Below the pieces are notes generated by a model, which saw nothing but the letters and a program-made list of their open reading frames with translations, did no database searches and was not told the origin of the DNA. A stretch of DNA of 64,000 nucleotides, from sequence record JN254800.1. The stretch is one strand, 5' to 3'. A program made the position numbers and the translations under genes. Within the stretch, counting starts at the first letter, position 1. Each line of letters starts with the position of its first letter. This document shows positions 481 through 1,135 of the stretch, piece after piece. This stretch comes from Pseudomonas phage NH-4.

Positions 481-545
481 GTTTGAAGGGTTTTGCGTTT
501 CAATGAGGAGATTATGCCGAAAGTCAGAATGGAAGTAAAGCATCT
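481..545 (-). promoter_or_regulatory. Early promoter/leader cassette A.
   Basis: On the minus strand: GCTTTACT-N17-CATAAT followed by a conserved leader. +strand landmarks: attatg 511-516, agtaaa 534-539. Drives the 319-465 gene. Confidence 0.6.
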
Positions 546-662
546 TGATGAGAAAATTTCTGCCCACCGACGAACGGTCGTGCTCGACCGTCGATTGAGG
601 GTGTGCATAATCGAAGTCGCACGACGCGACCGGTGATGCCCCGGCGAACCGGGGCGGGGTGG

Positions 663-827
663 TTAGGCGGTGCGCTCGGCGGCGCGTTCTGCGTTACGGT
701 CGTGCGCCATGCGCGCCCATACTGCGGCCCAGCGCGCTTTATCGGCAGAGTTCGGCTTGTACACGTCGTCAGGGGGCGGTTCCGGGCCGTAGGCGTTGCA
801 GCTTTCGTCGTATTCGTAGGTCATCAT
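663..827 (-). CDS. Small ORF of 54 aa (MMTYEYDESCNAYGPEPPPD...) not in the ORF track because it is under 60 aa.
   Basis: ATGATG start preceded by GAGGGCAAG. GC3-rich codons. Flanked on both sides by GCCCGG-CGAA-CCGGGC hairpins (642-659 and 851-868). Confidence 0.35.
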   Translation of the reverse strand: MMTYEYDESCNAYGPEPPPDDVYKPNSADKARWAAVWARMAHDRNAERAAERTA

Positions 828-870
828 CTTGCCCTCAAGGGGGTCATGGCCCGGCGAACCGGGCGGGTGA

Positions 871-1065
871 TTACTTGCGATATTTCTTAATCAGGTCGTG
901 TGCCATGGCGATGGCATCAGAATAGGTTTCTCCGCCAGCCTCCATTTCCTTCACAGCCTTATTGCGCAGTGCGTTCAGCTTGTTGCCGTTGATGGTGCCT
1001 TTTTCATCCTTGGCAGCTTCGCAGGAGTCGCGCAGAGTTTTCAGGGCTTGGTAGGTGGCGTTCAT
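871..1065 (-). CDS. Small early protein, 64 aa (MNATYQALKTLRD...).
   Basis: True start at MNATYQ with RBS GGAGAAC, directly downstream of promoter/leader element B. The upstream in-frame extension in the ORF track actually covers the promoter. Confidence 0.5.
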   Translation of the reverse strand: MNATYQALKTLRDSCEAAKDEKGTINGNKLNALRNKAVKEMEAGGETYSDAIAMAHDLIKKYRK

Positions 1066-1135
1066 CGTCTTGTTCTCCGGGTTTCGCGTTTCGATGAGGA
1101 GATTATGCCGATAGTCAGAATGGAAGTAAAGTGTC
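1066..1135 (-). promoter_or_regulatory. Early promoter/leader cassette B.
   Basis: Same consensus (-10 at 1102-1107, -35 at 1125-1130). Drives the 871-1065 gene. Confidence 0.6.

Follow-up and report, generated by a model that had tools for sequence, protein, structure and literature searches.

Several minus-strand genes in a 64,000-nucleotide stretch of Pseudomonas phage NH-4 (JN254800.1; referred to here, at its full length, as the window) are preceded by nearly the same intergenic sequence, a promoter followed by a conserved transcribed leader. What does this repeated unit do, and why does its similarity continue past the start of transcription? We consider it probable that the unit is a standard cassette for strong expression, maintained by selection and put to repeated use by recombination, and we hold the promoter part of this account with more confidence than the whole. 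Each cassette would be a complete expression unit read by host sigma70 RNA polymerase, in a family built up by duplication and recombination. Selection for fast initiation and for efficient, structure-free translation would preserve the promoter block and the first ~20 nucleotides (nt) of the transcript, and the ~100 bp of common sequence would also offer a patch of homology at which phages could gain, lose, or swap small early genes, much as with the promoter-early stem-loop (PeSL) cassettes of T4-type phages. The phage itself is assigned, by nucleotide comparison, to the genus Pbunavirus as a mosaic PB1-like Pseudomonas aeruginosa myovirus, because the first 8 kb of the window matches LMA2 at 99.8% identity and the right-hand 16 kb matches other Pbunavirus genomes at ~95-96%; a nucleotide search with the first 8 kb matched 424 phage records, nearly all of them P. 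aeruginosa phages. PB1-like phages encode no RNA polymerase and depend on that of the host (PMC10914365).

An unbiased repeat search returned four direct repeats on the minus strand, A (473-542), B (1064-1133), C (4813-4882), and D (49043-49112), which are 70-83% identical to the reference copy over 70 nt; A and B have 119 nt in common at 85%. The 29-nt core of the leader occurs three times at ≤3 mismatches, against 0.00 expected (none in 100 shuffles). A profile of A-D found these four copies again at E = 1e-24 to 1e-28, as well as F (62594-62691; nhmmer E = 3e-5) and site G (6971-7017; E = 0.03), and in the same search of the window promoter E (60565-60660) was not detected. An earlier sequence-only reading had counted at least six near-identical copies, A to F. 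The family it described is real, but its close copies are the four A-D; F is diverged, E is only partly related, and an extra member, G upstream of open reading frame (ORF) 12 (6969-7013), had been overlooked. Further full members, R1 and R2, lie just past the right end of the window in LMA2-type genomes, upstream of ORF88.1 and ORF90.

Within the family, the proposed arrangement of TTTACT, 17 nt, and CATAAT, followed by CTCCTCA and the leader, is exact in A and B (minus strand of 440-660 and 1030-1250), and the variant -10 elements are as described, CAGAAT in C and TAATAT in D. With the same 17-nt spacing, the sigma70-like hexamers are thus TTTACT with CATAAT (A, B, and F), CAGAAT (C), or TAATAT (D), and TAGACA with CATAAT in E. 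The leaders of A-D, said to be nearly identical, do form one family, but that of B diverges after GAAACCC. Copies E and F both keep the ribosome-binding-site context attributed to them, but little else of the leader: F retains GTGCTTTACT-17-CATAAT-CTCTTCA and the ribosome-site context but has a different, hairpin-forming leader, and E has in common with the family only the -10/discriminator GGCATAATCTCTT and the ribosome-site context CCAAAACAGAGGA, its leader being unrelated and its -35 element TAGACA rather than GCTTTACT. Promoter E is therefore judged not homologous to the leader family, and among these sites it is only E whose orthologue is annotated in the LMA2 GenBank record, as a predicted sigma70 promoter. 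Two weaker candidates, put forward as seventh and eighth members, are promoters by orthology to P034 and P012 of phage 14-1 but do not carry the family leader. The gene downstream of the seventh, ORF66 (50270-51080, minus), is K/A/E-rich and contains long internal repeats with a 33-nt period (families D1-D6).

The starts of these transcripts can be placed because primary 5′ ends have been mapped in the sister Pbunavirus 14-1 by ONT-cappable-seq (Putzeys et al. 2024, PMC10914365; Table S3, bioRxiv 10.1101/2023.10.13.562163). Cassettes A and B are orthologous to P001, which was validated in vivo, C to P006, G to P009, D to P028 (with 105 nt identical), E to P043, F to P048, and R1 to P049, mapped at 65240- (the other positions are in Table 1). 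We checked the 14-1 positions base by base. At every listed site except P048 the start is the final A of CTCA, 7-8 nt after the -10 element, and in family members the 14-1 sequence continues directly 3′ of this A with TCGAAAC. The prediction that transcription starts about 7 nt downstream of the -10 elements is thus borne out by orthology for P001, P006, P009, P028, P043, and P049; P048 was mapped to a G that lies ~10 nt 3′ of the expected position, within the loop of the 5′ hairpin of F; this may be a processed or clipped end. P001 is a strong promoter: a construct spanning -50 to +1 drives msfGFP in uninfected Escherichia coli and P. aeruginosa (PMC10914365). Because this construct is strong without the leader, the leader is not needed for promoter activity. 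With their hexamers, the orthologous mapped starts, and the activity of P001 in vivo, the cassettes are best read as host-sigma70-type promoters, as had been proposed, with start sites assigned by orthology to the 14-1 sites.

Table 1. Cassettes, related promoters, and the inserted module in the window (predicted starts are on the strand given; 14-1 sites are those of Table S3, bioRxiv 10.1101/2023.10.13.562163, with the mapped transcription start site in parentheses)
Feature	Position (strand)	Promoter elements	Predicted start; leader	Downstream genes	14-1 orthologue
Cassette A	466..565 (-)	UP-like CAGAAATTTTC ~548-558; -35 TTTACT 534-539; -10 CATAAT 511-516	A at 504; 39 nt, 466-504	ORF02 (ATG 463-465), ORF01	P001 (707-), the ORF02-proximal promoter
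Inserted module	633..1071 (-), between B and A			ORF03 (64 aa), 54-aa ORF	
Cassette B	1066..1156 (-)	-35 TTTACT 1125-1130; -10 CATAAT 1102-1107	A at 1095; 30 nt, off family pattern in its 3′ part	ORF03 (ATG 1063-1065), 54-aa ORF	P001 (707-)
Cassette C	4807..4900 (-)	-35 TTTACT 4874-4879; -10 CAGAAT 4851-4856	A at 4844; 38 nt	ORF09 (DUF2786/DUF7168; ATG 4804-4806)	P006 (4479-)
Cassette G	6969..7060 (-)	terminator hairpin CGACGAACGGTAGTGAGAAATCGCTACCGTTTTT; -10 TATAGT 7008-7013; reads TATAGT-CAACTCA-TCGAAACGAAC	A at 7001; TCGAAACGAACTTTCCAAACAGGAG	ORF12 (DUF6011; ATG 6966-6968)	P009 (6637-); terminator T004 ends at 6661
ORF15 promoter, related	8530..8570 (-)	GCGCTTTACT-18-TAGACT-CTGCTCA-TCAAC	A at 8530		P010 (8684-)
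Proposed eighth member	8962..9001 (-)	TTTACG-17-TAGACT (8969-8997)	A at 8962; no family leader	upstream of ORF16	P012 (9116-)
Cassette D	49036..49130 (-)	-35 TTTACT 49104-49109; -10 TAATAT 49081-49086	A at 49074; 39 nt	ORF64 (ATG 49033-49035), nucleotide-metabolism operon	P028 (49234-)
Proposed seventh member	51157..51200 (-)	poor -35; -10 GATAAT 51164-51169	A at 51157; no family leader	upstream of K/A/E-rich ORF66	P034 (51317-)
Promoter E	60565..60700 (-)	ACCGTTCGTCGG upstream, 60684-60695; -35 TAGACA 60650-60655; -10 CATAAT 60627-60632	A at 60619; 55 nt, structured	ORF77 (ATG 60562-60564)	P043 (61300-)
Cassette F, diverged	62596..62693 (-)	-35 TTTACT 62669-62674; -10 CATAAT 62646-62651	A at 62639; 5′ hairpin with GAAA/GAGA loop	ORF82 (ATG 62593-62595)	P048 (63303-)

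The common plan emerges from an alignment of 45 copies from nine genomes, anchored on the -35 block. An A/T-rich tract with AGAAATTT lies ~15-25 nt 5′ of the -35 element; the promoter reads (G/A)TGCTTTACT, a 17-nt spacer, and a -10 element of CATAAT, TATAGT, TAATAT, or CAGAAT; 2-3 bases after the -10 element come (C)CTCA and then TCGAAACGCGAAAC(C/A)C; and the 3′ part consists of a pyrimidine run, an A run, AGGA, 5-9 nt, and ATG. The leader is ~30-45 nt long, A/C-rich, and begins AUCGAAACGCGAAAC. The spacers fall into classes without mutual similarity. Compared between the paralogue classes A, D, and R1, the -35 block is 93% identical, the spacer 24%, the -10 element 56%, and the segment from -5 to +1 83%; in the transcript the figures are 90% from +2 to +15, 81% from +16 to +22, and 52% from +23 to +36. 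With the spacer at chance identity between two conserved blocks, this pattern is unlike that of simple recent duplication, and the conservation of the leader exceeds what such duplication explains.

The same figures bear on the alternative that the similarity is the footprint of recent duplication or gene conversion, in which the leader would have no function of its own and would hitch-hike with the promoter. Duplication has certainly occurred, since A and B are a clear case that includes a degenerate 5′ piece of the terminase gene and a piece of the divergent promoter; crossovers are documented inside the cassettes (see below), and the leader motif never occurs without the promoter. Neither recency nor long conversion tracts, however, would give a spacer at 24% identity between classes with conserved flanks. 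Moreover, C and D lie at fixed positions, without insertions or deletions, in ~300 genomes, and the C orthologue of a genome otherwise only 67-69% identical has retained both the -35 block and CTCATCGAAACGAAAC. We therefore regard hitch-hiking as very improbable and favor a cassette conserved by selection. Copy A carries a vestigial duplicate of the terminase promoter (584-611, plus; TCGACC-16-CATAAT), which points antisense into the ORF03 module; the original divergent terminase promoter is at 1175-1203 (TCGACC-17-TATACT).

The genome in question is a 70-kb metagenomic relative (L056), whose terminase and minor head protein genes have only 67-69% nucleotide identity to the window. Upstream of its ORF09 orthologue, at the site of cassette C, it reads GTGCTTTACT-17-TATAAT-CGC-CTCATCGAAACGAAACGCAGAAAGGAAAC-ATG, including CTCATCGAAACGAAAC, and the GAAAC repeat is kept with altered spacing. 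In pattern scans of IMG/VR and metagenomes, most matches outside Pbunavirus were chance matches, and two were informative (L040/L056 and L047). The second, the 165-kb L047 (IMGVR_UViG_3300046457_000084), has four promoters of the same design (4967-6760, plus; 10600-10956, minus), in which GAAAATATTT, CTTTACT, 16-17 nt, and TATAAT or TATGAT are followed by (C/T)TCAT(C/T)G, one of them with CTCATCGAAAC. L047 encodes a distant RIIA homologue and had no nucleotide match in the phage collection. Because the same design occurs in this unrelated genome, neither the promoter type nor the CATCG start context is confined to Pbunavirus; the leader segment GAAACGCGAAAC appears to be. Within the window, TCGAAACGCGAAAC at ≤2 mismatches occurs only at +2 to +15 of cassettes A-D in 64 kb, and matches with three mismatches are at chance level. 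Among orthologues, the leader of D shows no substitutions and that of C three variable columns; we discarded this profile as a test of selection, the genomes being ~90-95% similar overall and too alike for a strong result.

The 3′ end of the leader is a module in its own right. The ribosome-site pattern YYCC-AAAA-AGGA-N5-9-ATG recurs at nine sites, where shuffles give 1.7. It is separate from the 5′ leader, and promoters that lack this leader, such as the plus-strand orthologue of 14-1 P038, use it too. That promoter is the second of two tandem CTTTAC-type promoters upstream of ORF69 (52899-52990, plus; TTTACC-17-TACTAT and TTTACT-17-GATACT), the orthologues of P037 and P038, and carries the module as CCCTCCAAAACAGAGGA and no family leader.

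Does the leader form a structure? We folded seven leaders (A, B, C, D, R1, R2, and F). Those of A, B, C, D, and R2 have minimum free energies of -2 to -4 kcal/mol and z-scores above 0, no better than shuffles; the R1 leader (-8.7 kcal/mol, z -1.17) and that of F fold more stably, and genuine 5′ hairpins occur only in the non-family leaders of E and F. With weak energies that are no better than shuffles in five of the seven leaders, a stable structure or structured riboregulator in the 5′ untranslated region was rejected. Rfam gave no match at the gathering score in the whole window, only chance-level ones (E up to 1 in 400-1250). Other candidates were dropped as well: an Hfq/Crc-type A-R-N motif spanning the ribosome site, since three or four such triplets turn up wherever a Shine-Dalgarno sequence has A-rich surroundings; a sigma70-dependent pause, because TCGAAA agrees with TATAAT at only three of six positions and lacks the key A2 and T6; and an IHF site, which did not fit. 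A possible mini-hairpin of 2-3 bp (UCG-AAACG-CGA) can be drawn in all variants.

The sequence-only reading took the conserved leader to imply a shared post-transcriptional operator. This is not established: the leader is unstructured, has no Rfam match, and always lies beside the start site, and the promoter is strong without it (P001, -50 to +1). A related reading would make +2 to +22 (AUCGAAACGCGAAACCC) a recognition site, as an RNA 5′ end or as promoter-proximal DNA, for a putative phage or host factor that co-ordinates a subset of early transcripts, for example in the early-to-middle shut-off, in stabilization, or in decay, comparable to T4 RegA/RegB or to an operator placed after the start. 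What speaks for it is that an exact sequence, not mere composition, is kept between paralogues with randomized spacers and in a distant relative, that the tandem GAAAC repeat is kept while its spacing shifts (GAAACGCGAAAC versus GAAACGAAAC), and that the mini-hairpin is possible in all variants, with a compensatory change of C-G to U-A in copy A and U.G in some C copies. Promoter strength that is independent of the leader leaves room for a separate role, and 14-1 gp12, the counterpart of ORF12, is reported to bind the alpha subunit of RNA polymerase. The support from the mini-hairpin amounts, however, to one double change in one lineage, in a helix too short for stability alone, and there is neither a stable structure nor an Rfam match. 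No candidate binding protein was found; among the first genes behind the cassettes we found none of known function, with only DUF2786/DUF7168 in ORF09 and DUF6011 in ORF12. The motif is missing from most of the 26 sigma70-type promoters of 14-1 and is thus not a general early-gene signal, and it never occurs apart from the promoter, as expected if it were simply inherited with it. On balance such a recognition site seems unlikely, and we are doubtful that the first ~20 transcribed nucleotides, with a tandem GAAAC at +2 of at least five transcripts, form a dedicated element for a putative factor controlling a subset of early transcripts. If true, it would mean a leader-based early-gene regulon in Pbunavirus, whose cassettes would also carry genes from one phage genus to another.

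The second part of the account, reuse by recombination, can be followed at two sites. The 591-bp unit from A to B is precisely missing from many Pbunaviruses, and in USP1, 14-1, R26, and Sealy one hybrid cassette, B-like upstream and A-like from CCCTTCAAAC on, replaces B, the 591-bp unit, and A. At the same site between terminase and ORF02, F8, BL6, and KM14 have three other, unrelated small genes, each joined right after CGAAACG. At the right end, LMA2 has R2-ORF90-R1; in 14-1, ORF90 is gone and the single cassette, P049, resembles R2 up to the end of the spacer and R1 from the -10 element on. In these alignments the presence or absence of genes at the terminase-ORF02 and ORF90 sites is explained by crossovers inside the cassettes. 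Another variable spot, the ORF12-ORF13 site, lies beside cassette G and its terminator (6969-7060 of the window; 14-1 6605-7226); it holds a methyltransferase gene in 14-1 and Kara-mokiny 14, a different 513-nt gene in F8 and R26, and none in the window.

The genes inserted between B and A (633-1071) are absent from 14-1, USP1, R26, and Sealy but are found at 82-92% nucleotide identity in Pakpunavirus genomes (SPA05, PseuPha1, Kat, PA10, and others), an unrelated genus with the same host as the window phage. In SPA05, ORF03 has a different promoter, its own TTGACA-17-TAGAAT. Behind each of the two genes of the module lies a GC stem capped by a UUCG tetraloop, with no T run (~641-658 and 846-861, minus; GCCCCGGTTCGCCGGGGC and GCCCGGTTCGCCGGGC), and in SPA05 the loop of the second hairpin is inverted (CCCCGGCGAACCGGGG). 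The 12-mer ACCGTTCGTCGG is found five times, against 0.45 expected, each time beside a promoter or in a terminator arm (567-578, 1158-1169, 60684-60695, 56351-56362 [minus], and 7049-7060 [plus]); the two copies 5′ of A and B fall within the -35 region of the divergent promoter of the terminase gene (P002 in 14-1, start site 822+).

With its own promoter and hairpins, and inserted between genes that are adjacent in relatives, the module behind B has the properties of a moron, and its occurrence in Pakpunavirus is in keeping with this. The cassettes had been described as moron-like monocistronic units, which fits some of them. In 14-1, P006 and P009 drive single genes (gp08 and gp12), but P001 heads a 529-nt unit of gp01-gp02, P028 a 2.8-kb unit of seven genes, and P049 five genes (PMC10914365; bioRxiv 10.1101/2023.10.13.562163). 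The orthologues of A, D, and R1 thus drive two, seven, and five genes, and the D and R1 operons do not fit the description of a moron. The cassettes head separate minus-strand units, namely, small genes of unassigned function at both genome ends and the nucleotide-metabolism operon. Whereas moron insertion is thought to be independent of conserved flanking repeats (PMC2839356), the Pbunavirus joints lie in a shared cassette, and several cassettes head conserved multigene operons.

The closest parallel is offered by the PeSL cassettes of the T4-type phages RB49 and phi1 (Arbiol et al. 2010, PMC2839356; Comeau et al. 2014, PMC4122927), where one phage carries a gene between two cassettes and its close relative has a single hybrid cassette instead, where crossovers fall between the -10 element and the ATG, and where inverse PCR on infected cells shows cassette-bounded mini-circles (PMC2839356). 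The Pbunavirus units are likewise ~100-bp repeated intergenic sequences with an A/T-rich tract, sigma70-like -35 and -10 elements, a Shine-Dalgarno sequence, and an ATG; they too flank small genes of unassigned function, occur as two cassettes or as one hybrid between close relatives, and have crossovers between the -10 element and the ATG. They belong to another phage lineage and host, however, and we claim no sequence homology; their conserved block reaches into the transcribed leader, and a G/C stem-loop is present at only some of them.

The early promoters of T4 are a large family of strong promoters read by the host polymerase, with an UP-like tract and a GTTTAC-type -35 element, and T4 early transcripts carry short common signals for co-ordinated post-transcriptional control, RegA and RegB acting at or near the Shine-Dalgarno sequence and start codon. 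By analogy, the Pbunavirus cassettes would resemble T4 early promoters as a family read by the host polymerase, with an UP-like tract and a related -35 element. The block that they conserve, unlike the RegA/RegB targets, occupies the transcript's 5′ end.

Several points weigh against the view of a selected, recombining PeSL-like cassette. All of the evidence on transcription comes by orthology, with 0-2 mismatches to 14-1 at C and D and more at A, B, and G, and the label "early" draws on where the genes lie and what they contain, the time points of the 14-1 data having been pooled. Selection and local gene conversion between copies are hard to tell apart at the ~90-95% similarity of the orthologues. 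The exact conservation of +2 to +15 exceeds what a need for "lack of structure" would ask, and an additional sequence-specific function is possible. Stem-loops, a defining part of PeSLs, are present only at A, B, E, and G: hairpins precede A and B (CGACGGTCGAGCACnACCGTTCGTCG), E, and G, the last being a terminator (T004 in 14-1), and none was seen directly upstream of C, D, R1, or R2.

How much of this is new? The promoters are not: they are already published for 14-1, where the sigma70-like promoters have the same elements at the orthologous positions (P001, P006, P009, P028, P043, P048, and P049), with matching -35 and -10 hexamers. That study analyzed only -50 to +1 and does not report the conserved leader, the paralogy, or the link to gene gain and loss (PMC10914365), and the window phage has an extra copy, B plus A, missing in 14-1. 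What the present comparison adds is that a subset of these promoters is one paralogous unit conserved ~20 nt into the transcript, and that these units mark the joints of gene gain and loss. In the literature searched, neither the conserved leader nor the role of the cassettes in crossovers is described, no paper links PeSLs with Pbunavirus, and a literal search of paper texts for the leader motif gave no relevant paper; the JG024 paper goes no further than noting conserved intergenic motifs whose function is unclear.

In therapy against P. aeruginosa, Pbunaviruses belong to the most widely used phages, and their early genes are mostly without known function. Against this background, the cassette would offer a compact, portable strong expression part for Pseudomonas and a defined 20-nt element open to test for a role in early-gene control. 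It would also account for the places at which these genomes gain and lose small accessory genes, exchange with Pakpunavirus included.

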